From the NCBI GenBank assembly GCA_964372275.1, contig CAYJRR010000033.1:1-37405 (forward strand): a DNA stretch of 37,405 bases, given 5' to 3'. The position numbers and the translations under genes were made by a program. This document shows, piece after piece, positions 10,485-37,339 of this stretch. The DNA is from an uncultured bacterium (lineage in GTDB: Bacteria > CAYJRR01). Under the pieces are notes generated by a model, which saw only the letters and a program-made list of their open reading frames with translations, was not told the origin of the DNA and ran no database searches. The first letter of the stretch is position 1, and every line of letters begins with the position of its first letter.

Positions 10485-10500
10485 CGGTCCAAGCCTTGCT
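10485..10500 (+). promoter_or_regulatory. Candidate sigma54 -24/-12 promoter
   Basis: CGGTCCAAGCCTTGCT: GG-N10-GC with TTGCT, about 30 nt before ATG 10530. Confidence 0.4.
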
Positions 10501-11350: not shown

Positions 11351-11557
11351 TTGATCTCGGGTGTCCGGAGCGAGCGCTCCGGGGCGGCGGCCCGCAACGG
11401 CCGCCGTCAGGGAAGTCGGTGAAAGACCGACGCGGTCCCGCCACTGTGAGTGGAGAGCGCCTCGCCGAAGTACCACTGGGCCGCCGCCTCGATGCGGCGG
11501 CCTGGGAAGGTGGCGGGGGGCGACGACCCACGAGCCAGGAGACCTGCCCGAGGTCGA
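11351..11557 (+). promoter_or_regulatory. Cobalamin (B12) riboswitch
   Basis: AGGGAAGTCGGTGAAAGACCGACGCGGTCCCGCCACTGTGA, CCACTGGG..CCTGGGAAGG, B12 box GAGCCAGGAGACCTGCC; P1 pairs 11351-11361 with 11547-11557; directly upstream of a TonB-dependent receptor and ABC transporter. Confidence 0.96.
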
Positions 11558-11570
11558 AGATGCACCGGAA

Positions 11571-11594
11571 CCTCTCCGCGGACGAGAGGGAGGG
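11571..11594 (+). promoter_or_regulatory. Riboswitch expression platform: SD-sequestering hairpin with kissing loop
   Basis: CCTCTC (11571-76) pairs with GAGAGG (11584-89), overlapping the SD; loop GGAC (11580-83) is complementary to L5 GTCC (11435-38). Confidence 0.7.
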
Positions 11595-11597
11595 ACG

Positions 11598-13658: not shown

Positions 13659-13662
13659 AACG

Positions 13663-14760
13663 ATGTCCGCTCACCCAACGCCCGTTCCGTCCGCCCGCCG
13701 TCCGATCCGACTCGTCTTCGTCGCCGCCGCCGCGCTGCTCGCGCTCGGGTGCGAAGAGGGGGAGAAGAAGAAGGGGACCTACGACGCCGAGGTGTTCCCG
13801 GACGTCTTCCTCACCGGCGGAGGACCGAACCGCCTGGTGGTCGACGGAGACGACGGGTACGTCGTCAACGGCGACAACACGGTGCAGAAGATCGACCTCT
13901 CCACCTGCAGCACCGCCGAGGACAGCTGCGAGACGGCCGGCTCGGCCACGCTTCCGATCCTCTCGTTCCCCTACGACGGCGCGGTGGTGGGTGGCTCGCT
14001 TTACGTCTCGACCACCGGGGACGACAAGCTGGTCCGGATCGACACCTCCACCATGGCGATCACCGCGTCGATTCATAGCAACGGCGGCTTCACCCTGAGC
14101 ACGCCACAGTCGATGACCGAGAAGAACGGCACCCTCTACGTCGCCAACGGCGCCTCCTTCGGATTCGCGCCGGGGTACGTCGCGATGGTGGAGGGGACGA
14201 CGCTGACCGGGACGATCGCCACCACCCAGCTGTTTCCGGTGAGCGTCCAGGAGCTGCCGAACGGGAAGCTGCTGGTGGTCAACAGCGGCCTGTTCAACTT
14301 CGAGACCGAGGAGGTGACGGAGCCGGGGGGGCTCGACATCATCGACCCGGGCAGCGATGAGGTGGAGGAGAACATCCAGCTCGGCAACAAGCTGCCGGGT
14401 CCGATCGCGGCGATCACCGACGACGGCGCCTTCGCCTTCGTCCCCGCCAACGAAGGGCGGCTGCTCCGGGTGAATCTCGAAGACGGTTCGGTCTCGACGT
14501 ACGAGATTGCCGGGGCGGACGTCTACTTCTCCTGGATCGTGCTCGACGAGGGTCTCCTCTATCTGATGAGCTTCGGCGAAGACACCACCTACGTCCTCGA
14601 CGCCGACTCGCTCGAGCTGCTCGGGACGATCGTCACCGGCCCGGGTGGGGAGACGCCGCGCGGACCGGTCCACGGCGTCGTCCGCGAGCTCGACGGGGAG
14701 AAGTTCCTCCTGATCGTCGAAGGGCTCGCCAACGCGATCACGGCGGTGCGATTGCCGTGA
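13663..14760 (+). CDS. YncE/YVTN-type beta-propeller lipoprotein, BtuG-like
   Basis: Lipobox LALGC; blades YVVNGDNTVQKID, LYVSTTGDDKLVRID, LYVAN, LLVVNSG; sits between btuB and btuF. Confidence 0.75.
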   Translation: MSAHPTPVPSARRPIRLVFVAAAALLALGCEEGEKKKGTYDAEVFPDVFLTGGGPNRLVVDGDDGYVVNGDNTVQKIDLSTCSTAEDSCETAGSATLPILSFPYDGAVVGGSLYVSTTGDDKLVRIDTSTMAITASIHSNGGFTLSTPQSMTEKNGTLYVANGASFGFAPGYVAMVEGTTLTGTIATTQLFPVSVQELPNGKLLVVNSGLFNFETEEVTEPGGLDIIDPGSDEVEENIQLGNKLPGPIAAITDDGAFAFVPANEGRLLRVNLEDGSVSTYEIAGADVYFSWIVLDEGLLYLMSFGEDTTYVLDADSLELLGTIVTGPGGETPRGPVHGVVRELDGEKFLLIVEGLANAITAVRLP

Positions 14761-15698
14761 CCTGGCAGCGTCTCGCCGGAGCGTGGGCGTTGGTGGCGGT
14801 GCTCGGCTGCCGCGCGCCCGGCGCCGAGGTGGCCGCGGACACCCCGCTGCGTCCGGCGGCCGCAGCGATCGCGAACGAGTCCGCCGCGGGCGCCGCCGAT
14901 CGAACCGTCACCGACGCCGTCGGGAGAACGGTGACGGTTCCGGCGGCGCCCCGGCGGGTCGTGTCGTTGGCGCCGGCGCTGACCGAGACGTTGTTCGCGG
15001 TCGGCGCCGGCGACCTTCTCGTCGGCGTGACCCGGTTCTGCGATCACCCGCCGGCGGCGGCGGCGATCGAGCGGGTCGGCGGCTTCTCCGATCCCGACGT
15101 GGAGCGGATCGTCTCGTTGCGGCCCGACCTGGTGATCGCCACCGCCGACACCGTCTCCCGCGCCCGCTTCGACAGCCTGGTCGCCGCGGGGCTGGCCGTC
15201 TACGCGGTGAATCCCCGCGGGCTCGACGGCGTGGCGGAGACGTTCGCCGTGGTCGGAACGCTCGTCGGCCGCGCGTCGGAAGGGCGGGCGCTGGAGGCCG
15301 CCTTCCGCGGACGGATCGCGGCGGTCGAGTCCGGCGTCGCGTCGCGCCCGCGGCGCCGCGCGCTGTTCCTCTTCTCGACCGACCCGCTGATCGCGGCGGG
15401 GCCCGGAGGGTTCGTCGACGAGCTGTTGCGCCGGGCCGGCGGGGAGAACGTGCTCGCCTCCGCGCCGACCTCCTATCCGCGACTGGGAGTCGAGGGGGTG
15501 GCGGCGGCGCGGCCCGCGGTGATCCTCACCACCGCACCTACCGGGGAGGGGGCGATCCGGCGCACCCTCGGACCGGTCGCGGCGACGATCCCGGTGGTGG
15601 CGATGGAGGCCGACCTGGTGGAGCGGCCGGGACCGCGCCTGGCGGACGGGTTCTCCCGGCTCGCCGCCGCGCTGCACCCGGAGACGCCGCTTCCGTGA
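14757..15698 (+). CDS. btuF: Periplasmic cobalamin-binding protein (helical backbone fold)
   Basis: VTDAVGRTV..PRRVVSLAPALTETLFAVGAG..VGVTRFCDHP..PDVERIVSLRPDLVI..RPGPR; lipobox VLGC. Confidence 0.9.
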   Translation: MTWQRLAGAWALVAVLGCRAPGAEVAADTPLRPAAAAIANESAAGAADRTVTDAVGRTVTVPAAPRRVVSLAPALTETLFAVGAGDLLVGVTRFCDHPPAAAAIERVGGFSDPDVERIVSLRPDLVIATADTVSRARFDSLVAAGLAVYAVNPRGLDGVAETFAVVGTLVGRASEGRALEAAFRGRIAAVESGVASRPRRRALFLFSTDPLIAAGPGGFVDELLRRAGGENVLASAPTSYPRLGVEGVAAARPAVILTTAPTGEGAIRRTLGPVAATIPVVAMEADLVERPGPRLADGFSRLAAALHPETPLP

Positions 15699-16771
15699 CG
15701 CGCGCCGTCCTCTCGCTCGTCGGGCTCGCGGTCGTCCTCTCGGTGACGGTCGTCGTGGGCCTGCTGGTCGGCAGCGGAGGGATCGCGTCCGGAGAGGGGT
15801 CCGAGCTCTCTCCGGCGTCGATCGTCGCGGCGCTTTCGGCCGGGCCGGCGGCCGCCGAAACCGGTGCCGGCGTCGTTCTCTGGACGATCCGGCTGCCCCA
15901 GGTGCTGCTCGCCGCCGTCGTCGGAGCGGCACTGGCGGTCAGCGGCTCGATCTTCCAGGCGACGCTCCGCAATCCGCTGGCCGATCCGCTCCTCCTGGGG
16001 GTCGCCGCGGGGGCGTCGCTCGCGGCGTCGATCGCGATCGGCCTCGGCGCCGATTCGGCGTGGGTGCCGGCCGCCTCGGCAACCCTCGGCGCGGGGGCGA
16101 CGTTGCTGTTCGTCTTCGCCGTGGCGGGCCGGCAGCGGCGCTTCGACGCCGGGACGATGGTGCTCGCCGGCGTGATCGCCTCGACCTTCTACTCGGCGCT
16201 GACGCTGCTCCTCCTCTCGGTCACGCCGACCCCCTCGATCTCACGCATCCTGCAGTGGACGATGGGAGGGTTCGGCGACGTCGGCTTCGCCAAGGTGCGG
16301 TGGGCGGGGCCGGCGATCGGCGCGCTGGTGGCGATGGCGGCGGCGGGGACGCGGCCGCTGAACCTGCTGGCGATGGGGGACGACGTCGCGCGCTCGGCGG
16401 GCCTGGCCGTCGGAGGGGCGCGCGCCGCGCTCTACGCGCTGGGGGCGGCGCTCACCGGGGTCGCGGTCGCCGCGGCGGGCGTCGTCGGCTTCGTCGGGCT
16501 GGTCGTGCCGCACGTCGCGCGCCGGCTGGTCGGACCCGACGAGCGGGTCGCGCTCCCTGCGTCGGCGCTCCTCGGAGGGACCTTGTGCGTCGTGGCCGAC
16601 GCCGTCGCGCGGACGGCCGTTCCGCTGGCGCAGGCGGCATGGGCCTGGTGGCGCGGCGTTCCGGCGGCGGTCAGTCCGGTCGAGCTTCCAGTCGGAGTGG
16701 TCACGGCGCTCATCGGCGCGCCGTTCTTCCTGGCCCTCCTGATGCGCCGCCACGCCCGGGGGGGCGCGTGA
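15695..16771 (+). CDS. btuC: FecCD/BtuC-family ABC permease
   Basis: IRLPQV, FQATLRNPLADPLLLG, GDDVARSAG, GFVGLVVPHVARRLVG, ELPVGVVTALIGAPFF; GTGA overlap. Confidence 0.92.
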   Translation: MTRAVLSLVGLAVVLSVTVVVGLLVGSGGIASGEGSELSPASIVAALSAGPAAAETGAGVVLWTIRLPQVLLAAVVGAALAVSGSIFQATLRNPLADPLLLGVAAGASLAASIAIGLGADSAWVPAASATLGAGATLLFVFAVAGRQRRFDAGTMVLAGVIASTFYSALTLLLLSVTPTPSISRILQWTMGGFGDVGFAKVRWAGPAIGALVAMAAAGTRPLNLLAMGDDVARSAGLAVGGARAALYALGAALTGVAVAAAGVVGFVGLVVPHVARRLVGPDERVALPASALLGGTLCVVADAVARTAVPLAQAAWAWWRGVPAAVSPVELPVGVVTALIGAPFFLALLMRRHARGGA

Positions 16772-17625
16772 CCGGCGGCGACGCGCGGCGGGATCCGGGT
16801 GGCGGCGGAACGGTTGCGACCGGGCCGTTGCTCGAAGCACGAGCGATTTCGTTCTCTTTCCCCGGCGCGGCACCGCTTTTCGAGGACGTCACCCTGGAGA
16901 TCGCCCGCGGCAGCCACGTCGGGATCGTCGGTCCGAACGGCGCCGGGAAGAGCACGCTGCTCCGTCTGTTCGCGGGGGGCCTCCTTCCGGGAGCCGGGGA
17001 GATCCGGTTCGACGGCGTTCCGATGCGCGCGTGGCGGCGTCTCGCGCTCGCCCGGCGGATGGCCTACGTGCCGCAGTCGGCGCCGGCCGATCTCCCGTTC
17101 ACGGCGATGGAGGTGGCGCTCGCCGGGCGCTTCGCGCACGTCGGCTATTTCGGCGTGGAGTCGGCCGCCGATCGCGCGAAGGCCCTCGACGCGTTGACGC
17201 GCCTCGACGCCGCCGGCCTGGCCGGGCGACCGTACGCGGAGCTGTCGGGCGGCGAGCAGGCCAGGGTCCAGGTCGCGCGCGCGCTGGCGCAGGAGCCGGA
17301 TCTGCTGCTCCTCGACGAGCCGACCGCCTTCCTCGATCTCGGGGCTCGGCTCGACCTCTACGACCGGTTGCGGGAGGAGAACCGCCGGCGCGGCCTGACG
17401 GTCGTCGTCGTGACCCACGACCTCAACCTCGCGGCGGAATACTGCGACCGGCTCGTCCTCCTGGCAAAGGGGGGCGTGGTCGCGTCCGGTGCACCGGACG
17501 GGGTCCTGGACGAAGCGCGGATCGGCGCGCTGTACGGGTGCCGGGTGGCGGTCGACGTGAATCCGGCGACCGGTCGCCGCCGGGTGACGCCGCTTCCGCG
17601 CCACGCCCGGGACCGGCTTGCGTAA
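16768..17625 (+). CDS. btuD: ABC transporter ATP-binding subunit (cobalamin/iron-chelate type)
   Basis: GPNGAGKST, LSGGE, LLLDEPT, THDLN; GTGA overlap. Confidence 0.92.
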   Translation: MTGGDARRDPGGGGTVATGPLLEARAISFSFPGAAPLFEDVTLEIARGSHVGIVGPNGAGKSTLLRLFAGGLLPGAGEIRFDGVPMRAWRRLALARRMAYVPQSAPADLPFTAMEVALAGRFAHVGYFGVESAADRAKALDALTRLDAAGLAGRPYAELSGGEQARVQVARALAQEPDLLLLDEPTAFLDLGARLDLYDRLREENRRRGLTVVVVTHDLNLAAEYCDRLVLLAKGGVVASGAPDGVLDEARIGALYGCRVAVDVNPATGRRRVTPLPRHARDRLA

Positions 17626-25361: not shown

Positions 25362-26039
25362 ATGAGCGCCGTCGACGAAACCCCCACGCCGATCCGGCGG
25401 ATGGCACCCGGGCTTTTCCTCGGTGCGCTCGCGGCGGCCGCGGCCGCGGTCGTTTCGGCGCGGATCGGTGCGAGATTTCTGGGCGATGCGCGGGGCGAGG
25501 CCGTGGGCGTCGCAGCCGACCGTCTTGCCACCGACGTTGCGTCCGGCTCCTACGTGACCTTCGAGGCGCGACTCGATCCGGGACGCGTCGGTTATCTGCA
25601 ATCGGCAGGCGGCAAGATGGGCTACCTGTTGACGTCGCAGGCGGGTCCAGAGGTCGTCCTCTTCTGCGCTCCGCATTCGGAGTGCAGCCGCTACGTCGGG
25701 ACCCATGGACCGCTTCCCGGCAAGGAGCGGCCGCAAAGCGCGAGCTTCGGACAACCGGTCGTGCTTTCGGGTCGGCTGTTCGACGAATCGGCGGTGGCCT
25801 CTCGGCGGGACGTATCGATCGCCGACATCCGTCGGTACGCCGCGGCGGGGCGGGACGGCGGTCGCCCGGCCACGTCATCCGGTGCCGCTCGCTCCTCTCC
25901 GCCGGACGCACTCCGTGTCGTGTGGCTCGACGTCACGCCGGCCTCCGAGCGCGTCCGCGCCTGGATCGCGCTCGGCGCGTCGCTCCTCCTCGGCATCTCC
26001 GCCGCCGGGACGGGCGCGGCCGTTTTCCGGCGTCGGTAG
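25362..26039 (+). CDS. Hypothetical membrane protein (N- and C-terminal TM helices)
   Basis: Two hydrophobic segments flanking a soluble domain; follows glk on the same strand. Confidence 0.6.
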   Translation: MSAVDETPTPIRRMAPGLFLGALAAAAAAVVSARIGARFLGDARGEAVGVAADRLATDVASGSYVTFEARLDPGRVGYLQSAGGKMGYLLTSQAGPEVVLFCAPHSECSRYVGTHGPLPGKERPQSASFGQPVVLSGRLFDESAVASRRDVSIADIRRYAAAGRDGGRPATSSGAARSSPPDALRVVWLDVTPASERVRAWIALGASLLLGISAAGTGAAVFRRR

Positions 26040-26085
26040 CGTCCAGGCGAGACGTCCGTGCGCCACGTCGCTCGCGTGCCGACGC

Positions 26086-26700
26086 CTATCGCGCCCGGCC
26101 CACGCCCCTCGTCGAGCCGACCGGCGTCGAATCCGCTGGCTGCGGCGAACGCGTCGAGCCGAAACGCGGCGCGTTGCTGCCGGCGGCCGACCCCGCGGTT
26201 CCGGAGTGGATCGCCAATTGGCGTTCGATTGCTTCGGCCCGTCGGAGCGCTTCGCGGCGATCACGTTCGAGCGAGTCCCGTCGGGCGCGGAGCGCGTCCA
26301 TCGGCGTCGGAAGGCTATGACGATAGGATCCGTACGCGTTCAGGGCGAAGCTTGCGACGAAGATCGCCACCGCGGCCGGAGTGTTTACGAACGTCGCTCC
26401 GCCCGCAATCATCATGCCGAAAAGTCCGGCCTCCACCAGGCGATTTGCGGCGGCTTCCTGAGCCTTCGACGCTTCACGGGCGCCGTCGACGCGAAGGAGG
26501 AGGTCCTGTGATTCGCTCTCCGCTCGACGAGCCCGTTCGCGCTCCGTACTCGCCTGCCGGCGCAACGCCTCGATGGCGGGGCTCGCGATGGGAGAATCCA
26601 CCACGATCGGACCGGCGGGTTGCTCGGCACGAGCGGCGGTCGCCGCGAGGATCGAAAGCATCGAAAGTACGGCAAGCGCGCGACTGACGTTGGATGCCAT
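26086..26700 (-). CDS. Secreted coiled-coil / hydrophobic-hairpin protein
   Basis: RBS GGAGGA, signal peptide ending ARA-E; charged helix, two hydrophobic helices, second charged helix, S/T/G-rich tail. Confidence 0.75.
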   Translation of the reverse strand: MASNVSRALAVLSMLSILAATAARAEQPAGPIVVDSPIASPAIEALRRQASTERERARRAESESQDLLLRVDGAREASKAQEAAANRLVEAGLFGMMIAGGATFVNTPAAVAIFVASFALNAYGSYRHSLPTPMDALRARRDSLERDRREALRRAEAIERQLAIHSGTAGSAAGSNAPRFGSTRSPQPADSTPVGSTRGVGRAR

Positions 26701-26739
26701 TGAGTTCCTCCGTCCCGGATTGGAGTCGAGTCGAAGGAT

Positions 26740-26755
26740 TTCAAGGAACGTGCCG
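26740..26755 (-). promoter_or_regulatory. Candidate sigma54 promoter
   Basis: CGGCACGTTCCTTGAA (near-consensus -24 box, TTGAA variant -12), about 40 nt upstream of ATG 26700. Confidence 0.6.
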
Positions 26756-26840
26756 TCGAATTCCAGGCGCGATTCCAGCAGAAAAGCGAGCGAGCCACGA
26801 TCACGTCTCGGTACACGACATGGGTTTCGGAGTCGCCGCC

Positions 26841-26858
26841 TGCAGGGAGTTCCCGACA
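26841..26858. promoter_or_regulatory. Candidate enhancer (UAS) palindrome
   Basis: TGCAGGGAGTTCCCGACA, matching TGTCGGGA-N2-TCCCGACA also seen at 28221. Confidence 0.45.
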
Positions 26859-26931
26859 ACGAAAAAGGGCGGGAAGAGCGACGTGCGTGGGTCGATGCGC
26901 GATCCCCGTCGTCCACGCTAGGATGGAGTTC

Positions 26932-28182
26932 ATGCGGCCATCCTTGATGACATGGACCATCCTCGCGCCGTGGATCGTCGCTTCGTCGGTCTTGGTCGGC
27001 GCCTGCACGCGAAAGGAATCGGTCCCGCTCGCCCCAAAATACTACGAAGACGTGGCGCCGATTCTCCAGGAACGTTGTGTCTCGTGCCATGTCGCCGGTG
27101 GCATCGCCCCCTTTCCGCTCACCAGCTACGAAGCCGCGGCGGCGGTCGCATCGTCGATCAAGGCGACGACGGCCGCCCGGACGATGCCTCCCTGGGGCGT
27201 GGACAACTCGGGTAGTTGCCACACCTATGCGGATGCCCGGTGGCTCTCGGACGAAGAGATCGATACGTTGCGTGGATGGGCGGATGGAGGTGCGCCCGAG
27301 GGAAACCCGGAGGCGGCGCCGACGCCGACGTCGACGACGCCGGGACTTCAACGCGTCGACGCGACGGTCGACATGGGCTCGAGCTACACGCCGAACGCGA
27401 CCTACAGCGACGACTATCGTTGTTTCGTCGTCGACTCCGTGACGACGACGGATGCCTACCTGACGGCGTTCGAAGTTCGTCCCGGGGAGCCGAAGGTGGT
27501 GCATCACATCATCCTCTACGGCCTGACGGCGGAGGGAGAGACGGCGGCCGTGCAGAACGACGTGAACGATCCGGGCCTCGGCTACGAGTGTTTCGGCGGG
27601 CCCGGAAGTGCCGGTGCGTACTGGCTCGGCGCCTGGGCGCCGGGGATCCGGGTGGTCGAGTACCCTGCCAACACCGGCATTCTGGTTTCCGGCAACCGGA
27701 AGATGGTGATGCAGATCCACTACAACCTCGCCAACGGGGCGCTACCGGACCGGACCCGCATCGACCTGATGGGAGAGGCGACGGTTGCGAAGCCGTCCTC
27801 GCTCGCCGTGATCTCCGATTTCAATCTGGCTCTCTCTCCCGGGCAGTCGAACGCGACGCACACCTTTTCCTATCCGCTCGACTTCATGACCGGGCCCGCG
27901 GTGGTCTACGCCGTCTTCCCGCACATGCACCTGCTGGGGAAGTCGAGCCTTCTCGAGATCATCCGCTCGGATGACACGATCGAGTGCGTCCAGGACGGCT
28001 ACCGCTGGGACTTCGCGTGGCAGCAGCTGTACTTCTACGAGAGCCCGATCATCGCGCAGCCCAGCGATGTCCTTCGCATGACCTGCCATTACGACACCAC
28101 CTCCCGAACCGAGGTCACGACGTTCGGCGAGGGCTCGGAGGACGAGATGTGCGCGTCGATCATCTACAGCAGCGCTCCGTAG
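26932..28182 (+). CDS. Copper type II (PHM/DBH-like) monooxygenase-family lipoprotein with N-terminal c-type heme motif
   Basis: Lipobox VGAC; CVSCH, RTMPPW; CuH-type VVHHII and QIHY; CuM-type FPHMH and DEMC. Confidence 0.85.
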   Translation: MRPSLMTWTILAPWIVASSVLVGACTRKESVPLAPKYYEDVAPILQERCVSCHVAGGIAPFPLTSYEAAAAVASSIKATTAARTMPPWGVDNSGSCHTYADARWLSDEEIDTLRGWADGGAPEGNPEAAPTPTSTTPGLQRVDATVDMGSSYTPNATYSDDYRCFVVDSVTTTDAYLTAFEVRPGEPKVVHHIILYGLTAEGETAAVQNDVNDPGLGYECFGGPGSAGAYWLGAWAPGIRVVEYPANTGILVSGNRKMVMQIHYNLANGALPDRTRIDLMGEATVAKPSSLAVISDFNLALSPGQSNATHTFSYPLDFMTGPAVVYAVFPHMHLLGKSSLLEIIRSDDTIECVQDGYRWDFAWQQLYFYESPIIAQPSDVLRMTCHYDTTSRTEVTTFGEGSEDEMCASIIYSSAP

Positions 28183-28220
28183 GGACCGAAGCCCTCCCGG
28201 GGTCCCATCGCGCCGTCGAT

Positions 28221-28238
28221 TGTCGGGAGATCCCCACA
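28221..28238. promoter_or_regulatory. Candidate enhancer (UAS) palindrome
   Basis: TGTCGGGAGATCCCCACA, one mismatch from a perfect TGTCGGGA-N2-TCCCGACA palindrome. Confidence 0.5.
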
Positions 28239-28301
28239 CCGCGCTTCGGACGGATCGCAGCCGATTCATAGCCGATACGGTTCGTTACGGCCGACCGATC
28301 A

Positions 28302-28317
28302 TGGCCACCCGGTTGCA
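28302..28317 (+). promoter_or_regulatory. Candidate sigma54 promoter
   Basis: TGGCCACCCGGTTGCA: TGGC..GG-N10-GC..TTGCA, 38 nt before ATG 28355. Confidence 0.6.
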
Positions 28318-28354
28318 ACGACTCCTCCCGAACCTGCCGCCTGGAGGATTCATC

Positions 28355-28861
28355 ATGCGAAAAATAATGGCCGCTCTCGTCGTGCTCGCCGTGCCCTCGC
28401 TCGCCAGCATCGCCCACGCCGACCAGTTTTCCTGGATCGAGGCGGCGAAGGTGCAGAACGTGAGGGAAGCGGTTCGGACCTTGCGCCGCGTTCCGGCTTT
28501 CGAGTACTGCGAACCGTGTGGAGACGAAGCGCCGAAGCTCCTTGGAGGGCGCGTCAAGCTCGAGACCGTCCCGCAGGATTCCCGGTACCTGCGCGTGACG
28601 GTCGGAGGGAAGGAGATCGATCTCGCCTACGTCTTCGTCCAGACCGGCGAAGAGTCGCCCAGATTCGAGAACCTGGCGTGGCGCGTCGGGCTGATTCCCA
28701 GCGACGTCTCCCGCATCCTCACCCTGTCGCTGAAGGTCACGACTTCGCCGGTGCTTGATCCGTTCCCTGGATCGAACGTTTCGCGCAACGGGGACAGCAC
28801 CGGCGGGACCACCGGTGCCGCGTTTCCGTCGACGTCTACCGGAGCCGGAACCCATCGGTGA
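28355..28861 (+). CDS. Secreted hypothetical protein with CEPCGD motif
   Basis: RBS GGAGGA; signal ending AHA-DQ; YCEPCGD, IDLAYVFV, NLAWRVG; S/T/G-rich tail. Confidence 0.8.
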   Translation: MRKIMAALVVLAVPSLASIAHADQFSWIEAAKVQNVREAVRTLRRVPAFEYCEPCGDEAPKLLGGRVKLETVPQDSRYLRVTVGGKEIDLAYVFVQTGEESPRFENLAWRVGLIPSDVSRILTLSLKVTTSPVLDPFPGSNVSRNGDSTGGTTGAAFPSTSTGAGTHR

Positions 28862-28910
28862 CGTTTCCGGCGGAGCCCGATTGAAAGGCTCCGATCCTGG
28901 GAGGGGCAAG

Positions 28911-31019
28911 ATGGTACCTAGACGGGTCGTCGGCGTTCGGACGGCGGCGTTCGCGATGCTGGTCGCGTTCCTCGGCGGCCAGGTGGCGCGCGCGCAGGAC
29001 TCTTCGGGATCGGAATGCCCGACGGGGACGCTCGAGGTCGAGTCCGGCCGGCTCGGCTCGACGATCGCCGCGCTGCTGCAGGCCGCGGAGTGGCTGCCTC
29101 GCGATCCCTGCGCGGAGATCGCGGGGCCGCCGTCCCCCGCCGCCCTGCGGCAGGCGCGGAAGTACCTGGAACCGGGACCGGTCGGCGGCGGCGCGAAACC
29201 GCGTCTGACGACGATCCCGATCGTCTTCTCCGACCGTCGTGGCGCCCGACTGCTCGTCCTCTATCGGATGCAGTCGGCGGACGGCTCCGTGCGCTTCGTG
29301 GAGCCGGGCGGTCGCACCTACTCCGATCTCGAGGATTGGAAACGAAACAATCGGCTTCCACCGGGAGACGTGAGCTTTCCGGAGAACGGCGACGTTCCGG
29401 GCACCCGATGCGATCCCGTCTGGACGTCCTCGCCGACCCCGTCCACTCGGGTTTCCGCACGGTTCGTGCGAGGTCTCGACGTCGCCACGGGCGCCGCCGG
29501 AGTCACGCTCCTGGCGAGTTCCCTGGTCATCGGAACGGCCGGGACCGGCGGTGCCCTGATCGCGGCCGCCGGCTTGGGAACGGGTCTCTATGGCGGTATC
29601 CGGGCGGGATTCGACCTTCTCGACCGGGTGCGCCACGAGGAGTCGCTGAACCCGTTCTCGAGTGCGGAAGCGCGCTCGAACGAGCTCGCCCTGGCCGCCA
29701 GTATCGTTGGACTTGGTGCGACCGCGGCGAGCGTTCGAGGCTCCGTCGCCGTCGCGAAGGGGCTGAACGCGGTGGGGATCGTGCTCGCGGGCGCGGGCAC
29801 GGCGGACTTCGGTCTCCAAACGTTCCAGCAGTGGGAGCATCTCTCGCGCGCAGAGCGGACGGCGGCCCTGGCGAGGCTCGCCTTGTCCGGAACGACGACG
29901 GCCATCTCGATCCGGAACGCTTGGACCACCGGGACGTCCGCCACGGTCCGTCGCGCCGCCGGCGGCGCGGTCGAGCCGCCCCCTCTTCCCGAATACCTGG
30001 AGAAGCTGGAGCGCGCCGCGAAGCCGCTGACGCCACGGGAAGGGGGTGCTTTCCTGAGCGGACCGGCCGGCGGCGTCGAAGGCAGCTCGATGTCGAAGCA
30101 GCTGCGATCGGTCGGTCCCCATCTCCGCGCCCACGACTTGTCGCTGGAGGCCGCAGCGACATCGCCGCAGCTTCTCAAGATCGGCTCGGCCCGGGGATTC
30201 CAACGCGGCGGGCTCGCGGTCTGGAAGAATGACGTCTTCCCCGTCGACTACTTCGTGCGCCGGCATGCCGAGGGGGCCAGGGCCGAAATCGGAAAACGGG
30301 AACCGTGGTTCCGATGGGATGCTTCGCGCTCCGAGTTTGAGTTCCGCGATTCCGGGTCCAACGCACGCCTTCTCGAGCTGGTCAGGAACGGGCGGAAATC
30401 CCCGGAGAAGATCGCGCTCTACCGGGGCACCACCGCGTATGAGGCACTTCTCCTGGAGTTGGGGCGGGACGCCACCGGCGCCGCGCGGGACGCGAGTTGG
30501 CGGGAGGCGTTGCGTTCGACCCTCCGCGAGATCGTGGACTACAAGAAGTCGACGCTCGCCGCGTATGTGGAGCTCGCCAGGGAAGGAATGGTGACTGAGA
30601 CGGATGCACGCACGAGACAGGCGAAGTACGACGCCGTCGTGCGCCTCGCCGAAGACCGCATTTCGACGGCGGAACGTGCGCGGACCGCCGATCAAATCCG
30701 CGCCTTCGCACGCGACTCGCTCGACCGCCTGCTGGCGGATGGGTCCTTCGGCGGCGGTTTCGTCACGCCGGATCCGGACCGTGCCGCGATGTTCGCCAAG
30801 GGGCGCGTGGTTCGCTTCGACGTTCCATTCGAAGAGCTCGACCGGCTCCTGCGAAGCGATCGTCTCTATGTCGGGCTGGAGGCGATCGACCAGCAGCCGG
30901 CGGTGGAGATCGGCTTTCTCCCCCCCGCGGACGGCGCCGGCGGCGAGCGCCTTGGCGATCTCCTGCTCCGCTCCTTCTCGACGTCGACCGCTGCCGGAAG
31001 CTCGCAGCTGTTCAACTAG
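28911..31019 (+). CDS. Secreted polymorphic-toxin-like protein: DUF4781-like domain, hydrophobic helices, ART-like C-terminus
   Basis: RBS GGGAGG; signal ending ARA-Q; RFVEPGGRTYSDLEDWKRNNRLPPG..FPENG and DRVRHEESLNP..EARS recalled as DUF4781-like; C-terminal LYRG, GFVTPDPDRAAMFA, EIGF. Confidence 0.7.
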   Translation: MVPRRVVGVRTAAFAMLVAFLGGQVARAQDSSGSECPTGTLEVESGRLGSTIAALLQAAEWLPRDPCAEIAGPPSPAALRQARKYLEPGPVGGGAKPRLTTIPIVFSDRRGARLLVLYRMQSADGSVRFVEPGGRTYSDLEDWKRNNRLPPGDVSFPENGDVPGTRCDPVWTSSPTPSTRVSARFVRGLDVATGAAGVTLLASSLVIGTAGTGGALIAAAGLGTGLYGGIRAGFDLLDRVRHEESLNPFSSAEARSNELALAASIVGLGATAASVRGSVAVAKGLNAVGIVLAGAGTADFGLQTFQQWEHLSRAERTAALARLALSGTTTAISIRNAWTTGTSATVRRAAGGAVEPPPLPEYLEKLERAAKPLTPREGGAFLSGPAGGVEGSSMSKQLRSVGPHLRAHDLSLEAAATSPQLLKIGSARGFQRGGLAVWKNDVFPVDYFVRRHAEGARAEIGKREPWFRWDASRSEFEFRDSGSNARLLELVRNGRKSPEKIALYRGTTAYEALLLELGRDATGAARDASWREALRSTLREIVDYKKSTLAAYVELAREGMVTETDARTRQAKYDAVVRLAEDRISTAERARTADQIRAFARDSLDRLLADGSFGGGFVTPDPDRAAMFAKGRVVRFDVPFEELDRLLRSDRLYVGLEAIDQQPAVEIGFLPPADGAGGERLGDLLLRSFSTSTAAGSSQLFN

Positions 31020-31945
31020 GTGCGAATGCGATTCTTCGGCTCTCCGCTTCCGGTTCCGACGACGACGACTTCGCGCCCGCTCCGGCCCCATGCGTCCATG
31101 AACTCCTGCGCGGAGGCGGTCGAGAGCATTCCGGTGCTGTCGCGAAGCGAGACCGCCGTGACGCGTCCGTCTGCGTCCTTGTTCATCCCGGTCACCACGA
31201 CCCAATGGGCCCCTTCGGTCGAGGACAGTCGGCTTCCGTCGAACCCGACGAGCGCGATCGGGTTCTTCCCTTGGCGAACGTCGAGCTCGAGCAACGCGAG
31301 GTCGCTGCCGGCATCTCCACTGCGGCCATTTCGACGCGATGTATCGAATCCGTATCCCCGCCCGAGTCGCTGCATCGATTCCGAGTCCAGGTAGAAGCCC
31401 CATCGATTCGGCGCGCGGAGTCCCACATCCATGCTGCGTCGGATGGCCTCGTCGAGGGTGACGCCGGCATGCTGCCGTGTCGTGACGAAGGAGAAGGCCC
31501 AGGGACCGCAAAGGTTCAGATCGATCGACGGCGGCGGCTCTTCCTGAGCGGTCTGGGTCGAGAGCGCGAGCTTTTCGCGTGCCCACTTGTCCCGCAGGGC
31601 AGGCTCGTCCGCCGCGGTCGTGTCGCAGCGGCCGTTCAAACACCAGGGATCGTTACCGGTGCCGCCAACGCCGCCGGTCGCCCCGTACACGCCGCCCGGC
31701 GTGAGGCCCGACGACCGGGCCGAACCCCGTATGCCGGCGCCGGAGGGAGTCCCACCGCGAAGGCCGACGCCGCCGATGCCGCCCCCGGCGAGGATCCGAC
31801 TGACATCCCTTCCGAGGGCGTCGACGCCGATTCGAACGTCGGGCACGAGCGTATGCGCCGCCGCGACACCGGCGATCACGACGACCGAAACGACGAGCAG
31901 TTGCTCTGTGGCCGCCTGGCCGGTGGGCTGTCGGCGCCGACCCAT
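31016..31945 (-). CDS. Flp/Tad-type pilin fused to a C39-like (papain-fold) cysteine peptidase
   Basis: MGRRRQPTG|QAATEQLLVVSVVVIAGVAA (Gly -1, Glu +5, hydrophobic helix); Gly-rich linker; NLCGP, AHWVVVTG, LRDS catalytic-triad pattern. Alternative GTG start at 31963. Confidence 0.78.
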   Translation of the reverse strand: MGRRRQPTGQAATEQLLVVSVVVIAGVAAAHTLVPDVRIGVDALGRDVSRILAGGGIGGVGLRGGTPSGAGIRGSARSSGLTPGGVYGATGGVGGTGNDPWCLNGRCDTTAADEPALRDKWAREKLALSTQTAQEEPPPSIDLNLCGPWAFSFVTTRQHAGVTLDEAIRRSMDVGLRAPNRWGFYLDSESMQRLGRGYGFDTSRRNGRSGDAGSDLALLELDVRQGKNPIALVGFDGSRLSSTEGAHWVVVTGMNKDADGRVTAVSLRDSTGMLSTASAQEFMDAWGRSGREVVVVGTGSGEPKNRIRT

Positions 31946-31958
31946 TCGGGAAGAGCGA

Positions 31959-31974
31959 AGCACGACACGTGCCG
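31959..31974 (-). promoter_or_regulatory. Candidate sigma54 promoter
   Basis: CGGCACGTGTCGTGCT (GG-N10-GC); would give a nearly leaderless transcript for ATG 31945. Confidence 0.5.
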
Positions 31975-32089
31975 TCCGTGACGCACGCGGAAATGCTCGG
32001 ATACCCCTGGTGATATCGGGGGGGCTCGACTCCTGAATGGATAGTAATACCCCCAGGCACCTCCGCGAGCCACGGCCGGGCGGTCCGAC

Positions 32090-33406
32090 CTACTCGAATC
32101 CGTGTCGGCGTAGGAGATCGACCAGGTGGGAGCGGTCCATCTTCGCGTTGCGAGCGGCTTGGGAGACGTTTCCGCCCGACCGTTGCACCACCGACCGGAT
32201 GAACCGGCGCTCGAACTCGTCCACCACCACGCGCCTCGCGTCGCGGTAGGGAAGGCCCAGCAGCGGCTCGATCAAATCGCCTCCGCTCCCCGCGGCCGGA
32301 GGGTTTCGCGCGCTATCGAGCGCGGGCGCGCGGCCGGTGGCGACCATCGCCTGCACGAAGTTCCGGAGCTCGCGCACGTTACCGGGCCAATGATGGCGGA
32401 TGATCGCCCGCATCGTCTCCGGATCGACGACCGCATCGACCGAAAGTTCCGGGTCCTCTTCCCAAAGGAAGTGCTGGACGAGGGCGGCTATGTCGTCGCG
32501 CCGCTCCCGCAGCGGAGGGAGCTCGATCAGCACAACCGCCAGACGGTAGTAGAGGTCGAGCCGAAACGTCCCCTGGTTGACCTCCGCCCGCAAGTCACGG
32601 TTCGTCGCGGCGATGATCCGCACGTCGACGCCGATCTCCTCCGATCCGCCGACGCGACGGAAGCGACGCCTTTCCAGGGCGCCGAGAAGTGACGGCTGCA
32701 TCGACGCCGGTAGCTCACCGAGCTCGTCGAGGAAGACCGTCCCGCCGTTGCCCCGCTCGAACGCCCCGATGTATCGCTTTTCCGCTCCGGTGAAGGCGCC
32801 CCGTTCGTGACCGAACAGCTCGCTGGCGATGAGGCTTTGCGAGAGCGCCCCGCAGTCGACCGTCTCGAACGGCTCCTTCGACCGAGGGCTCCGGGCATGG
32901 ATCGCGCGCGCGACCAGCTCCTTGCCCGTGCCCGACTCGCCCACCACGAGTACCGACCCGTCCCCTTTCGAGATCCGGTCGATCTCGGCCATCACTCGCC
33001 GCATCGCCGGCGATCGACCGAGCAGCCCTTCGAGCGCTTCGTCTCCGTGCAACGGAACCGTGACCTCCGAGCCGTCCTCCACGCGAACCTTCGTCTTCCC
33101 GAGCGTGAGGATCGCGCCGGCCGGGACGGATCCCGTCGATACCGATGCCAGCCCGACGAAGGTCCCGTTCGTCGATCCGTGGTCGACCAATCGAATGCGG
33201 TCCGCGTCACGAATCATCTCGAGGTGGTAGCGCGACACCGTCGGATCGGTGAGCGTGACGTCGTTGCCCGGCGCGGTGCCCAGGGTCAACCGGTCGGTGG
33301 TGGCGACGATCGACAAGCCGGTGTTCGGCCCGTCGACGACGACGGCGCGAAGTCCGACCAGTGGAATCCCCTCGACGCGAGTCGGAACGGTCGTTATCGG
33401 TGGCAA
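32090..33406 (-). CDS. FHA-domain sigma54-dependent enhancer-binding protein (Fis-type HTH)
   Basis: FHA LGT..DPTVSRYH..GSTNGT; Walker A GESGTGKE; ELFGHERGAFTGA; FLDE; AATNRDL; WPGNVREL; GNVSQAARNAKMDR. TTG 33406 follows GAGGAG. Confidence 0.93.
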   Translation of the reverse strand: MPPITTVPTRVEGIPLVGLRAVVVDGPNTGLSIVATTDRLTLGTAPGNDVTLTDPTVSRYHLEMIRDADRIRLVDHGSTNGTFVGLASVSTGSVPAGAILTLGKTKVRVEDGSEVTVPLHGDEALEGLLGRSPAMRRVMAEIDRISKGDGSVLVVGESGTGKELVARAIHARSPRSKEPFETVDCGALSQSLIASELFGHERGAFTGAEKRYIGAFERGNGGTVFLDELGELPASMQPSLLGALERRRFRRVGGSEEIGVDVRIIAATNRDLRAEVNQGTFRLDLYYRLAVVLIELPPLRERRDDIAALVQHFLWEEDPELSVDAVVDPETMRAIIRHHWPGNVRELRNFVQAMVATGRAPALDSARNPPAAGSGGDLIEPLLGLPYRDARRVVVDEFERRFIRSVVQRSGGNVSQAARNAKMDRSHLVDLLRRHGFE

Positions 33407-33471
33407 TCGGTCCGTCTCCTCGTCGCGAACAATATCATTCCTCGGAGGGTCCCGCGGTATCGTGACGGAGG

Positions 33472-35583
33472 ATGACCCGGGTCGATCCGAGATTGCGGGT
33501 GCTTCTCGCGTCTTTCGGTACCGCCGCGATGCTTCCGGTGCTCGCGCCCATCGAGCGTTTGGCGTTCGACGCGCGGTTGTCATGGCGAAGGGACGGCGGA
33601 TGGCCTCCGGATCTCGTGCTCGTTCCGATCGACGATGCGGCCCTCTCGACCTACGGGCGGTGGCCGTGGCCGCGCTCGCTCCTTGCGCGCCTCCTCGAGG
33701 AGCTCGAGGCGAACGGCGTCTCGACGATTGCGCTCGATGTCGTGCTCGAGGCGAGGACGACGGAGGAGGAGGACGCGCACCTGGCGGATGCGCTCGGTCG
33801 GTCGGTGCTGGCGATCGGATACCACGCCGGCGGCGGAACGGCCGCCGACCCGGAGGTCCTTCGCGCCGCGTCGATCGGCGAGGGCGCGGCGGACGCGGCG
33901 ACGATGCCGGTCGACCGCTTTGTGACTCCTTTTCGCCCGTTCGCCGATCGGGCGGCCGGCGTCGGCCACGCGGCGCTCTTCACGCGTCGCGATGGAATCG
34001 TTCGCGGACACGTCCCCCGAATCGGGATCCCCGATCTGGATCGATCCGTCCCTTCCCTTGCTTGGGTGGCGCTCGCCCGCCATCGTGGCACCCCGCCCTC
34101 GGAGATTCCGTTGTACGAGGGGGAATCGTACCTGGACGTCGTACCGGGCGGACCCCTTCCCCGCGCGGTGCGCGCGGGCGACGTGCTGGCGGGAACCGTG
34201 GAGGCGGGTACGCTCGCTGGCGCGCTGGCCGTCGTCTACGTCGACAGTGATTTCGCGCGCGATCGGTTTCCGTCCGCGTTGGGGCCCGCGACGTCGGGGG
34301 GACTGCTACTGGCGTACGCCCTCCGGACGCTGGACGGTGGACGTGTTCCGATCCCGACTCCCCATGTCGCGGCCTTGGCGGCCCTCCTGATCCCGGTCGT
34401 GGTGCTCGCGGTCCGCGTGTCCCGGCTTTCCGCAGCACGGATCCTGTCGCTCGTCCTCGGGTCTTCCGCTGTCGTCGCTTTCGTGGGGCTCGCGGCGGTT
34501 CCGGCGCTCGATCTCTTCGTCCCCGTCGTCTCGCCGATCGCCTTTCTCGTCCTTGCCGGGTTGTCGCTCGCCGCACATTCGAGCCGGCTCGCGGAGGACG
34601 ACCGGATTCGCCTTCGCGCGCTGCTCGAGTCCGCCCGACAGGCGGACGCTCCGGAGTCGGTGACCGAGGATTCGACGAGATCCGCGCACCTTCGGCGACC
34701 GAGACGGACAGCGATCGTCGCCGACGGGGTGCTACCCGCGCTCGCCGCGGGAGTGTCGCTCGACGAGCCGGTCGCGATCGGGCGCTATTCGGTGCGTACG
34801 CTTCTGGGTCGCGGAGGGATGGGCGCGGTCTTCCTGGCGTTCGATGGCGACCTGAAACGGCCGGTCGCGTTCAAGGTGATGCGGGAGAGCGCGGGGCCGT
34901 CGTTCCAGCGATTTCGGAGGGAGGCGACCGCCGTTGCGCGCCTGGCGAACACGCACGTTGTTCAGATCCACGAGGTCGGGCTGGACGAGGTGGTTCCCTA
35001 TCTGGTGATGGAATACGTCCCCGGGGGCTCGGTCGCCGAGGCGTTGCGCGACGAGAAGCGGCTCCCGTGGTTGCGCGCGACCCGGCTCGTCGAAGGGGTC
35101 GCCAGGGGCCTGGGTGCGGCGCACGCGGCCGGCATCGTGCATCGCGATGTGAAGCCCGGGAACCTTCTCCTGGTCGATCGCGCGGGCGATGTCGCGAAGG
35201 TGACCGATTTCGGGATTGCCCGACTCGAAGGGGAATCGAGGTTGACGCGCGCCGGCACGTTTCTCGGGACCCTGGGATACGCCGCGCCCGAGCAGATTAC
35301 GGGCGGGACCGTCGATCCACGGACCGACGTCTACGCCCTGGGGATCGCGTGGTGGGAAATCGTCGTCGGAATGGCCGCACGCACCGGAAATCCGTCCGAA
35401 ATCATGGCGGCCACGATGAGCCGCCCCCTTCCGGAGGCGCGCGCGTTCGTCCCAGACCTCCCCGAGGCGGCCGCCGATCTGCTTTCCCGGATGACGTCGA
35501 TCCGTCCCGAACGCCGGCCACGCGACGGCATCGAAGTCGCCGGCGAGCTTGCGAGGCTCCTGCCGGACGAACCGCGCTCCTAG
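33472..35583 (+). CDS. CHASE2-domain membrane Ser/Thr protein kinase
   Basis: CHASE2 VPIDD..YGRWPWPRS..DGIVR, three TM helices, kinase LGRGGMGAV, VAFK, HRDVKPGN, DFG, APE, DVYALG. Confidence 0.93.
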   Translation: MTRVDPRLRVLLASFGTAAMLPVLAPIERLAFDARLSWRRDGGWPPDLVLVPIDDAALSTYGRWPWPRSLLARLLEELEANGVSTIALDVVLEARTTEEEDAHLADALGRSVLAIGYHAGGGTAADPEVLRAASIGEGAADAATMPVDRFVTPFRPFADRAAGVGHAALFTRRDGIVRGHVPRIGIPDLDRSVPSLAWVALARHRGTPPSEIPLYEGESYLDVVPGGPLPRAVRAGDVLAGTVEAGTLAGALAVVYVDSDFARDRFPSALGPATSGGLLLAYALRTLDGGRVPIPTPHVAALAALLIPVVVLAVRVSRLSAARILSLVLGSSAVVAFVGLAAVPALDLFVPVVSPIAFLVLAGLSLAAHSSRLAEDDRIRLRALLESARQADAPESVTEDSTRSAHLRRPRRTAIVADGVLPALAAGVSLDEPVAIGRYSVRTLLGRGGMGAVFLAFDGDLKRPVAFKVMRESAGPSFQRFRREATAVARLANTHVVQIHEVGLDEVVPYLVMEYVPGGSVAEALRDEKRLPWLRATRLVEGVARGLGAAHAAGIVHRDVKPGNLLLVDRAGDVAKVTDFGIARLEGESRLTRAGTFLGTLGYAAPEQITGGTVDPRTDVYALGIAWWEIVVGMAARTGNPSEIMAATMSRPLPEARAFVPDLPEAAADLLSRMTSIRPERRPRDGIEVAGELARLLPDEPRS

Positions 35584-35746
35584 TTCTACTTGTCCCCTTT
35601 TCTCGCGCACGCTCTGGAGATCGAAGACGCGATCCGGCGCCACCTGCGCCTCCACAAACTCGATCCGATGCCGTTCGTCCGGACGATGACCGCCGATGAA
35701 ATCCACGCGAGTTTCGTCCGCTTTCGCTATCGAATCTCAGGGCTGC

Positions 35747-36289
35747 TTAGGGGACGGTTGCGCGGCGCGTTTCTACGGATTCCCCCCCGACGCGGTATTC
35801 GAATTCGTCGTTCGATAGCCACCGGGCCGCGGAGTGGACAAGGGCCGCCTCCGCCGGTCCGACCGGTGCGCGCTCGACCTTCTCGGGCTTCACCTTTCCG
35901 CGAAGGTAGTCTTTGAGTTTTCGCGTCGAGACGACGTGGTAGGGACCGAAGCGGTCTTGGAGCAGCAGCACCCACTTTCCGTCGGGAGAGAAGAGTTCGA
36001 AAGCCCAATCGCTGAACTCGATTCGTCCGGACGGCTTGAATTCGTACCGCACCGGATCGCCCCGGAACTCGAAGGAGACCTTCGACGTTCCGAAGGCGAG
36101 CGGCACGCCAAGCTCGGCAGGCGGCTTCTCCCCTTCGAAAACGGCGGTCACCGTCCCGGTGGCGCTCTTTACCCGCACTGGAAAGTCGGAAGGGGCGGAG
36201 GTCGCCACCGCCATTGCCACGGATGCGGAGGCGATCTCGGCGTGTCCCGAAAAGGATACGGCGCATAGGAACGAAAGGAGAAGTTTCAT
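35747..36289 (-). CDS. Secreted hypothetical protein, candidate immunity/partner of the upstream hydrolase
   Basis: Signal-like N-terminus MKLLLSFLCAVSFSGHA; FSPDGKWVLLLQDRFGPYH; ATGA overlap with the upstream gene. Confidence 0.7.
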   Translation of the reverse strand: MKLLLSFLCAVSFSGHAEIASASVAMAVATSAPSDFPVRVKSATGTVTAVFEGEKPPAELGVPLAFGTSKVSFEFRGDPVRYEFKPSGRIEFSDWAFELFSPDGKWVLLLQDRFGPYHVVSTRKLKDYLRGKVKPEKVERAPVGPAEAALVHSAARWLSNDEFEYRVGGESVETRRATVP

Positions 36290-37152
36290 TGGACCCTCCA
36301 CGCCGCTTCCACGTCTTCGCGCGGGGCGACGATCGCCCCGGAGTTCCACGCCCACGTCTCGAGCTCTCCGTCCTCGATCAGCCGCGTGCTTTCGCAGCCA
36401 TCCGCCCAGTGCACCTCGTAGACCTTCCCGTTCAGAATCACCGCCATGTGCATTCCACCCTTCGCCGTAAGGACTCCGAAAGGAATTCGCTTCAGTCGAT
36501 CCAGTCCAGACCGGTTCGGAGTCCGGCTCGCATCCTCCGGACGATAGTCGACGATCGCTTTCGAACGGTCGACCGCCATGCCGTAGTAGGTGCCTTTCGT
36601 TCGTGCCACGTGGGCGGCGTAGCGGTGCTCGCCGTTCGAGTCGGAGGTCGTCGTGTCCGGGGCCCAGAAGAGGCCCGTCCACCCGAGATGAGACTGGAGG
36701 GCCTTCATCAGCTCGGTCCCACGAAAGCCGCCGCTCCCGCTGCTCGCGCGCGCCGAGGAAAAGACCCGGGACCAGTCGCCGCTGCGTCCGGTCGCAACGA
36801 ACGATTCCCGTAGCACGTCGATCACCCACGTCGTGCAGTCGGTCACCTGAGGGCGCGGGTGGATGCCAGCTGGCGGCGGGCCGGCCTTTGAGCCGATGAA
36901 CGTCCCGCAGCCGCGGCTCGCGATGAGCGCGTCGTGCTCCAGATCGAGGCGTCGCGCGACGGCGTTCGCGATCCGGCCGAAGGGACCGCGGAGCCCGGTA
37001 TCGATCACTTCCCGCAGGTCGGCGAGGGTGGGACTCGCGGCGTCTCCAGGACAGCCGACGTCCGGTTCCTGCTGGGCGGCTACGGACAGTGGAAGTGCGA
37101 CGACGATCGTTGCCACGCGCAGTCCGCGTACGAATGCCGGTATCTCGTTCAT
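36286..37152 (-). CDS. Secreted papain-fold (NlpC/P60-like) hydrolase candidate
   Basis: Signal ending VAA-Q; TDCTTWV (Cys), GMHMAV (His), VYEVHW (Glu/His) in NlpC/P60-like order. Confidence 0.65.
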   Translation of the reverse strand: MNEIPAFVRGLRVATIVVALPLSVAAQQEPDVGCPGDAASPTLADLREVIDTGLRGPFGRIANAVARRLDLEHDALIASRGCGTFIGSKAGPPPAGIHPRPQVTDCTTWVIDVLRESFVATGRSGDWSRVFSSARASSGSGGFRGTELMKALQSHLGWTGLFWAPDTTTSDSNGEHRYAAHVARTKGTYYGMAVDRSKAIVDYRPEDASRTPNRSGLDRLKRIPFGVLTAKGGMHMAVILNGKVYEVHWADGCESTRLIEDGELETWAWNSGAIVAPREDVEAAWRVQ

Positions 37153-37183
37153 CGTCTCGTCCACCTTCCTGAAGAGCCGGAAG

Positions 37184-37199
37184 AGCAGCCGACGTGCCG
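37184..37199 (-). promoter_or_regulatory. Candidate sigma54 promoter
   Basis: CGGCACGTCGGCTGCT (GG-N10-GC), about 32 nt upstream of ATG 37152. Confidence 0.6.
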
Positions 37200-37241
37200 A
37201 TGCCAAGTGGCCGGAAGTCGTGGAGATCGCCGTTGCGGAGT

Positions 37242-37259
37242 TGTCGGTGACTGCCTACA
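37242..37259. promoter_or_regulatory. Candidate enhancer (UAS) palindrome, weaker copy
   Basis: TGTCGGTGACTGCCTACA: TGT-N12-ACA with TGTCGG/CCTACA arms. Confidence 0.35.
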
Positions 37260-37291: not shown

Positions 37292-37339
37292 CTGCTGGAC
37301 AACCCCGGGGCGATGCATCGCCCCGGGGTTGTCCAGCAG
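37292..37339. repeat. Perfect 48-bp spacerless palindrome, possibly a MITE-like remnant
   Basis: CTGCTGGACAACCCCGGGGCGATG|CATCGCCCCGGGGTTGTCCAGCAG, preceded by CTAGCAGT. Confidence 0.9.

Follow-up and report, generated by a model that had tools for sequence, protein, structure and literature searches.

In Myxococcus xanthus, sigma54 activators with an FHA-AAA-HTH architecture are reportedly often encoded beside Ser/Thr kinase genes and are accompanied by a large sigma54 regulon, as Jelsbak, Givskov and Kaiser are said to have described in 2005. The available text on the PilS-PilR-sigma54 control of pilA in Pseudomonas aeruginosa names the membrane level of the pilin as the cue (PMC6058289), and that on the Kil/Tad pilus of M. 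xanthus describes interchangeable minor-pilin Tips (PMC12075869, PMC8460266). Most Nla28 targets in M. xanthus are reported as intragenic in the accessible part of a further study (PMC9765219). Here, we analyze positions 26086–37259 of a 37,405-nt contig from an uncultured bacterium (CAYJRR010000033.1; the whole contig is referred to as the window), a region that harbors four sigma54-like boxes, an FHA-containing sigma54 activator, and a CHASE2 Ser/Thr kinase. The recurring core of this region is a pair of genes, one for the kinase and one for an Flp pilin fused to a predicted protease, which may equally well act together as sensor and dedicated pilin of this genome's Tad pilus as not.

The kinase gene (33472–35583, + strand) encodes a protein in which one transmembrane (TM) segment, a CHASE2 domain, and three further TM segments precede a Ser/Thr kinase domain. 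All Hanks-type motifs are present (Gly loop, VAxK, HRD, DFG, and APE) and the catalytic motifs are intact. The source assembly (4.64 Mb, 70% GC, 94.6% complete) contains 46 Ser/Thr kinases above the cut-off and 10 CHASE2 matches; the window is its contig C33, and C5, C22, C24, C30, C31, C66, and C127 denote other contigs of the same genome. The family to which the kinase belongs is small, with four close paralogues (C127, C5, C22, and C24; 42–46% identity), a distant one on C66 (30%), and six full-length relatives outside the genome among 8000 candidates scored. A TAA in the C127 kinase was considered as a lesion and rejected, being an assembly gap.

The pilin gene (31016–31945, − strand) encodes a chimera of an Flp-type prepilin (residues ~1–62), a Gly-rich linker, and a papain/C39-like domain (~139–309) harboring Cys146, His247, and Asp269. 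Flp (type IVc) prepilins have a short basic leader, a glycine at −1, a glutamate at +5, a hydrophobic helix, and usually a tyrosine at +6. The chimera follows this pattern with the sequence G/QAATE at the cleavage site and has a glutamine at +6. Over the aligned part, it is 50% identical to the major pilin encoded on C30, which itself matches PF04964 below the cut-off (E = 7.5e-4). The structure model of residues 139–309 (pLDDT 72.7) has papain/C39-like fold matches, nine of them at E ≤ 0.001, including AziU3, the C39-like 3erv (E = 1.3e-4), and the peptidase of PCAT1 (E = 2.1e-4); the same domain carries the Cys-His-Asp triad. Matches to the corresponding Pfam family, PF13529, all stay below cut-off and occur in 4 of the 17 members other than the queries.

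A sequence search of 1.84 billion cluster representatives returned 452 matches. Among the best 150, 21 have at least 250 residues (four being the queries), and all of these align across prepilin, linker, and peptidase, with the cysteine conserved in 21/21, the histidine in 20/21, and the aspartate in 17/21. The solved structures best matched by the profile of these chimeras are the Contact-dependent inhibitor A chains 8ssm and 12aj (E ~1e-4), 3erv, and the DUF4150 protein 9l5u (E = 8.4e-4). We infer that the inhibitor A and DUF4150 entries are Cpe1-type toxins; the main text of the Cpe1 paper does not name 9L5U (PMC12136450). No description of a prepilin-peptidase chimera was found in the literature searched, which consisted mostly of non-subscription papers in their main texts without supplements.

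The pilin and the kinase recur together. A six-frame search at E < 0.001 with an Flp-like N-terminal profile, whose seeds were four genes adjacent to kinases plus two more, finds 13 genes in the genome, and all five that are at least 150 residues long lie within 1.6 kb of a CHASE2 kinase of the close family. The extended pilin on C127 was detected solely in this way. Outside the genome, a full-length family kinase occurs in 2 of 15 metagenomic loci (L027 and L028), both with a divergent extended pilin and without an activator; the remaining 13 have partial CHASE2 matches and no pilin. The kinase thus stands beside an extended pilin at 5/5 close paralogous loci and 2/2 metagenomic loci. Across these seven loci, the pilin is found at seven, its protease domain at four, a TPR gene at four, a sigma54 box before the pilin at three, and an FHA activator at two. 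The constant neighbor of the kinase is the extended pilin and not the activator with which the initial annotation had paired it. In the window, the activator sits between pilin and kinase. One 7898-nt Logan contig carries both the sixth of the outside kinases (P0009) and a chimera (P0146), an indirect hint at one more pair. Among named genomes, synteny was sought at 18 loci, which match the kinase domain only and contain no pilin match.

Some of these loci show further peculiarities. Positions 1326–6383 of L020, which is the C127 locus, contain the kinase, the extended pilin, a CHASE2 gene that lacks a kinase domain and shares 133 nt with the 3′ end of the pilin gene, and an FHA activator; the arrangement looks like two fused, truncated cassettes. 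Upstream of the pilins of C24 and C127, a TTGC(A/T) element is retained and the −24 GG is absent, so that these regions are possibly decayed sigma54 promoters. In L028, a second Flp-like gene begins at the contig end (1–60), 3′ of the TPR gene.

The four boxes belong to a much larger population. The genome encodes a single rpoN (RpoN, E = 4.5e-64), itself preceded by a 15-bit box, and has a sigma54-activator domain in 33 genes, of which 11 also encode FHA. The motif YGGCAC-N6-TGC has 152 genomic copies, of which 96 fall in sense upstream windows against 7.1 expected, nearly all of them 20–80 nt before the start. When the spacing is made one base shorter or longer, only 2/103 and 2/91 copies fall in upstream windows. 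A position weight matrix trained on the genome minus C33 finds at least 10 bits in 195 of 2158 leaders versus 9.2 in shuffles, well above background, which upholds the motif as the initial annotation had read it; a wider search window gives 267 boxed leaders among 2465. The proposed enrichment upstream of exported proteins is likewise borne out. Export-like N-termini, called by hydrophobicity rules (two heuristics) rather than by a trained predictor, occur in 184/267 box-led versus 610/2094 box-less genes (p = 6e-36) with one heuristic and in 213/267 versus 705/2094 with the other, or 69–80% as opposed to 29–34%, and the share climbs as the box score rises, at each of the four thresholds. The boxes are promoter motifs of the sigma54 type, part of a genome-wide set of 200–270 mostly heading genes for likely exported proteins. 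The start codon follows within 31 nt of the box start in 58 of the 267, implying near-leaderless mRNAs.

All four 16-mers reported in the initial annotation are present at their positions and strands, with the GG and GC elements at a fixed 10-nt spacing shortly 5′ of genes; three score well and one is weak. Box 1 (26740–26755, −; 12.5 bits) has GA in place of GC at −12, as do 5 of the 267 boxes genome-wide, and its first base lies 55 nt before the start codon of 26086–26700 (−). Box 2 (28302–28317, +) scores 5.8 bits and lies 53 nt before 28355–28861 (+), whose paralogue on C31 has a 19-bit box at nearly the same distance (54 nt). Box 3 (31959–31974, −; 13.4 bits) precedes the ATG of the chimera by 29 nt, a near-leaderless geometry, and box 4 (37184–37199, −; 18.2 bits) lies 47 nt before 36286–37152 (−). 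Scores at least as high as those of boxes 1 to 4 are reached by 201, 381, 180, and 57 of 2465 gene leaders, respectively, and shuffled leaders reach 12.5 bits in 0.1% and 5.8 bits in 2.9% of cases. The matrix finds 12 additional sites of at least 8 bits in the window, mostly intragenic, so that a single matrix score is no proof of a promoter. Two further sigma54-like sites lie at 5266–5280 (−; 14.6 bits, before a 156-aa open reading frame) and 10485–10500 (+; 8.6 bits, before a 98-aa gene). The statement that the four box-led genes encode exported proteins holds insofar as all four have export-like N-termini by the hydrophobicity heuristic; 31016–31945 departs from it as a type IV (Flp) prepilin with no Sec signal peptide.

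Gene calls were made with a custom script. The activator (32090–33406, −) combines FHA and AAA (GAFTGA) domains with a C-terminus that reads as HTH-like, and its start is ambiguous (33406 TTG or 33430 GTG). It is divergent from the CHASE2 kinase gene, just as the initial annotation had it. Canonical phosphothreonine (pThr)-binding FHA domains carry GR, SxxH, and NG motifs, according to the available text of a published account (PMC3162421). In the FHA domain of the activator (33098–33286), GT replaces GR, while SRYH (SxxH) and NG are retained, which weakens the proposed step from kinase through pThr to activator. In the alignment, 2 of the 12 FHA domains of activators read GR and two more GK, compared with GR in 19 of the genome's 20 other FHA domains. 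A noncanonical link between kinase and FHA activator may exist, given that 4 of the 11 FHA activators have a kinase neighbor. A quick tree groups nine FHA activators, in which those of C33 and C127 are not sisters. The AT-rich spacer between the activator stop and box 3 (31975–32089) contains a GGGGTAT direct repeat, 46 nt apart, a candidate activator site.

The Tad locus of the genome, on C30, comprises two boxed Flp pilins, TadE/G, CpaB, a secretin, three FHA genes, and a kinase, together with a CpaF that, on our own reading, is fused to a CpaE/ParA-like domain. Beside it (C30, 25183–32248) lie genes whose N-termini we take to resemble bacterial microcompartment shell and enzyme genes. The case for a kinase that serves a dedicated pilin is built on the sigma54 motif set, the export bias, the pairing at 7/7 loci, and the conserved Cys-His-Asp. 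The chimera is probably inserted in the inner membrane, cut at G/Q by prepilin peptidase, and able to be built into or onto the C30 Tad pilus, with its protease displayed periplasmically or on the surface. Whether the kinase would then use its TM and CHASE2 region to read the state of the pilin, either as a membrane pool, as PilS does for PilA, or through a product of the protease, is in our judgment an even question. More tentatively, the activator encoded between both genes at the window locus could act as a relay, driving box 3 via a noncanonical FHA contact. The other three boxes would likely be served by other activators among the 33.

Several findings weigh against this reading. The protease domain is missing from 3 of the 7 extended pilins (C5, C127, and L027) and is papain/C39-like in the other four; only 3 of the 7 pilins have a sigma54 box before them, and the activator, whose FHA domain lacks the GR arginine, is found at only 2 of the 7 loci. 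As paralogous copies within a single genome, five of the seven loci are not independent. Across the seven pairs, no covariation of pilin identity with sensor identity is seen (Mantel p = 0.28), and no pilin accompanies the distant CHASE2 kinase on C66. The calls of signal peptides and gene starts rest on in-house heuristics.

The initial annotation proposed that the kinase phosphorylates a threonine read by the FHA activator, which would turn on all four boxes as a local battery of predation or competition effectors. Such a circuit appears improbable. It can draw on the presence of four boxes in 11 kb (0.65 expected), on an FHA activator divergent from a CHASE2 gene again at C127 and the kinase neighbors of other FHA activators, and on a GC content at third codon positions (GC3) that is low in all genes from 25401 to 37152 (0.74–0.84, against a genome 5th percentile of 0.84), as for one island and in favor of some common history. 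The clustering is modest, however, with three or more boxes in 2.6% of 2569 sliding 11.2-kb windows (mean 0.65), and given six export-like leader genes in the region, three or more boxes have a probability of 0.12; a box before an exported gene is the genome-wide norm and no sign of a regulon of the activator's own. Nor are boxes concentrated within 6 kb of FHA activators (7/49 versus 257/2394, p = 0.48 without C33; 10/56 versus 257/2409, p = 0.12 with it). Around other activators or all kinases of the genome, no enrichment is seen, and near CHASE2 kinases p is 0.04 and becomes 0.11 once C33 is removed. A common upstream activator site is not apparent, with no shared 9-mer beyond random promoter sets (p = 0.54 for all four boxes and 0.105 for three, at the low power of n = 4). 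The degenerate GR motif, the lack of the activator at five of the seven family loci, and the failure of any other flagged gene to recur beside the paralogous kinases count further against it.

A different reading retains the chimera and recasts it as a protease toxin against other bacteria that is delivered on contact, with the pilin leader routing it through the Tad pilus, the TPR protein as chaperone or immunity factor, and the kinase as a post-translational trigger via the FHA proteins of the Tad locus. We regard this as rather unlikely. PpkA, which acts through Fha1 on a type VI system, would be the model for the triggering, and the GR motif is kept by all but one of the 20 non-activator FHA domains. 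The inhibitor A chains and the DUF4150 protein among the best structures would fit a toxin, although these matches span only the 46-column His-Asp strands common to all C39-like folds. Papain-like Cys-His-Asp toxins of type VI secretion systems (T6SS) and of contact-dependent inhibition (CDI) are described in the available text of PMC12136450, and that of PMC8460266 attributes many FHA proteins and contact killing to the Tad-like Kil system of Myxococcus. The TPR gene, with an export signal, is present at 4/7 loci, in two of which (C24 and L028) it overlaps the stop codon of the pilin, but a homologue is absent at C33, C5, and C127, and the window chimera has no downstream gene, converging instead on 28911–31019. 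It is improbable, too, that kinase and extended pilin are merely a co-inherited duplicated cassette with no signaling link, the activator and flanking exported genes being unrelated arrivals in a variable region. The absent co-divergence signal, the fusion-like C127 locus, and a gene order that differs among loci would suit mere co-inheritance, whereas the pairing persists through sensor identities of 36–47% and through changes of order and cargo and is also found in two outside contigs.

The remaining genes of the region are diverse. The box 1 gene (26086–26700, −), missed by the gene finder and added manually, encodes a 204-aa orphan with an export-like N-terminus, a coiled-coil-like stretch, a hydrophobic segment, and a GC3 of 0.74; it matches no Pfam family and has no paralogue in the genome. 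It is followed by 26932–28182 (+), a lipoprotein-like protein with copper type II monooxygenase domains (PF03712 and PF01082) and a CxxCH motif, which has no sigma54 box (score −6.1). Box 2 leads a gene for a 168-aa exported protein with CxxC (28355–28861, +), for which no family was found. The next gene (28911–31019, +; 702 aa) encodes an exported DUF4781 protein (PF16013, E = 5.6e-27) whose C-terminal region gives a weak lead, and a lead only, to an ADP-ribosyltransferase fold (atlas score 0.84 to Tox-ART-HYD1); it has no box of its own (score 0.2) and is possibly read through from box 2.

Box 4 leads a gene for a 288-aa exported protein (36286–37152, −). NlpC/P60 enzymes employ a Cys-His-His triad, and this protein is NlpC/P60-like by motif only, with Cys106, His235, and His248 invariant in 15/15 aligned sequences; it has 15 relatives, of which 14 were aligned with it. 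Pfam, PDB, and hhalign gave no significant match to the NlpC/P60 fold; hhalign against seven AmiA-like proteins, one further locus being left out for a frame problem, gave E = 0.11, and the single-sequence structure model is uninformative (pLDDT 39). Overlapping it by 4 nt is a gene for a 180-aa exported protein (35747–36289, −), which matched no protein family and is a candidate partner or immunity protein. A perfect 48-bp palindrome (37292–37339), single-copy in the genome by blastn, lies ~95 nt 5′ of box 4 near the contig end, with a hairpin, a binding site, and an assembly artifact as candidate explanations. The description of these genes as effectors stands in part: three look like possible antagonistic enzymes, the papain-like protease by fold search and the NlpC/P60-like and ADP-ribosyltransferase-like proteins solely by a motif or a weak lead. 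Elsewhere in the window (11361–17625, +), a TonB-dependent receptor, a FecCD permease, and an ABC ATPase form an ordinary uptake cluster.

The favored sensor-pilin pair would have consequences for Tad pili and for CHASE2 proteins. In their available text, the cited papers have Tad pili diversified by minor-pilin tip complexes and leave open by what means the pili of predators inflict harm; a subunit that resembles a major pilin and bears a protease would be a direct candidate cargo. To our knowledge, CHASE2 ligands are largely unknown, and the constant pairing makes the pilin a candidate ligand for the CHASE2 sensor domain. A sigma54 set in which exported proteins are encoded by 70–80% of units offers a sequence-only route to listing the accessory secretome of this lineage. 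The widest proposal, which we consider unlikely, is that the major Flp pilin serves this deep uncultured lineage as an export tag, by which interchangeable cysteine-protease effectors are placed on its Tad pilus, each such pilin having its own CHASE2 kinase that would sense it and signal via FHA proteins. Such a system would be the Ser/Thr-kinase equivalent of PilS-PilR and would load a contact weapon as well, within a sigma54 secretome of ~200 units.

FHA activators beside kinases, large sigma54 regulons, and variable-tip Tad pili are of already known kinds. With the FHA enhancer-binding proteins of M. xanthus, this genome shares the FHA-AAA-HTH architecture, the kinase neighbors, and the large sigma54 regulon. 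It differs in that the GR arginine is missing from 10 of the 12 activator FHA domains and in that a pilin chimera is the constant neighbor of the kinase. Its boxes lie between genes and a short distance before the ATG, in contrast to the mostly intragenic Nla28 targets described in the part of PMC9765219 at hand.

The likeness to Cpe1 toxins (PMC12136450, main text) and to C39 and C39-like peptidases (PCAT1 and 3erv) consists in a C-terminal Cys-His-Asp papain-like domain behind a trafficking domain. In Cpe1, the latter is of the T6SS/CDI type, whereas the N-terminus of the chimera is an Flp prepilin and no downstream immunity gene is constant, there being none beside the window chimera and a coupled TPR gene in C24 and L028. 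Like Kil/Tad, as far as the accessible accounts go, the genome combines a Tad machine in an FHA-rich gene cluster with several dispersed pilin loci, and such loci diversify the pilus in M. xanthus. The Kil Tips are described there as TadE/F/G-type complexes whose large subunit bears variable domains, and KilF is fused to FHA; here, single major-Flp-like pilins carry the cargo, each with a kinase, and the C30 CpaF has the CpaE/ParA-like domain instead. Kinases are not mentioned in the available text of the Tips paper (PMC12075869). As in PilS-PilR, a membrane kinase, a sigma54 activator, and a pilin gene are brought together. PilS-PilR pairs a histidine kinase and a receiver domain with a type IVa pilin, whereas the locus described here pairs a CHASE2 Ser/Thr kinase and an FHA domain with an Flp pilin that carries an enzyme domain.

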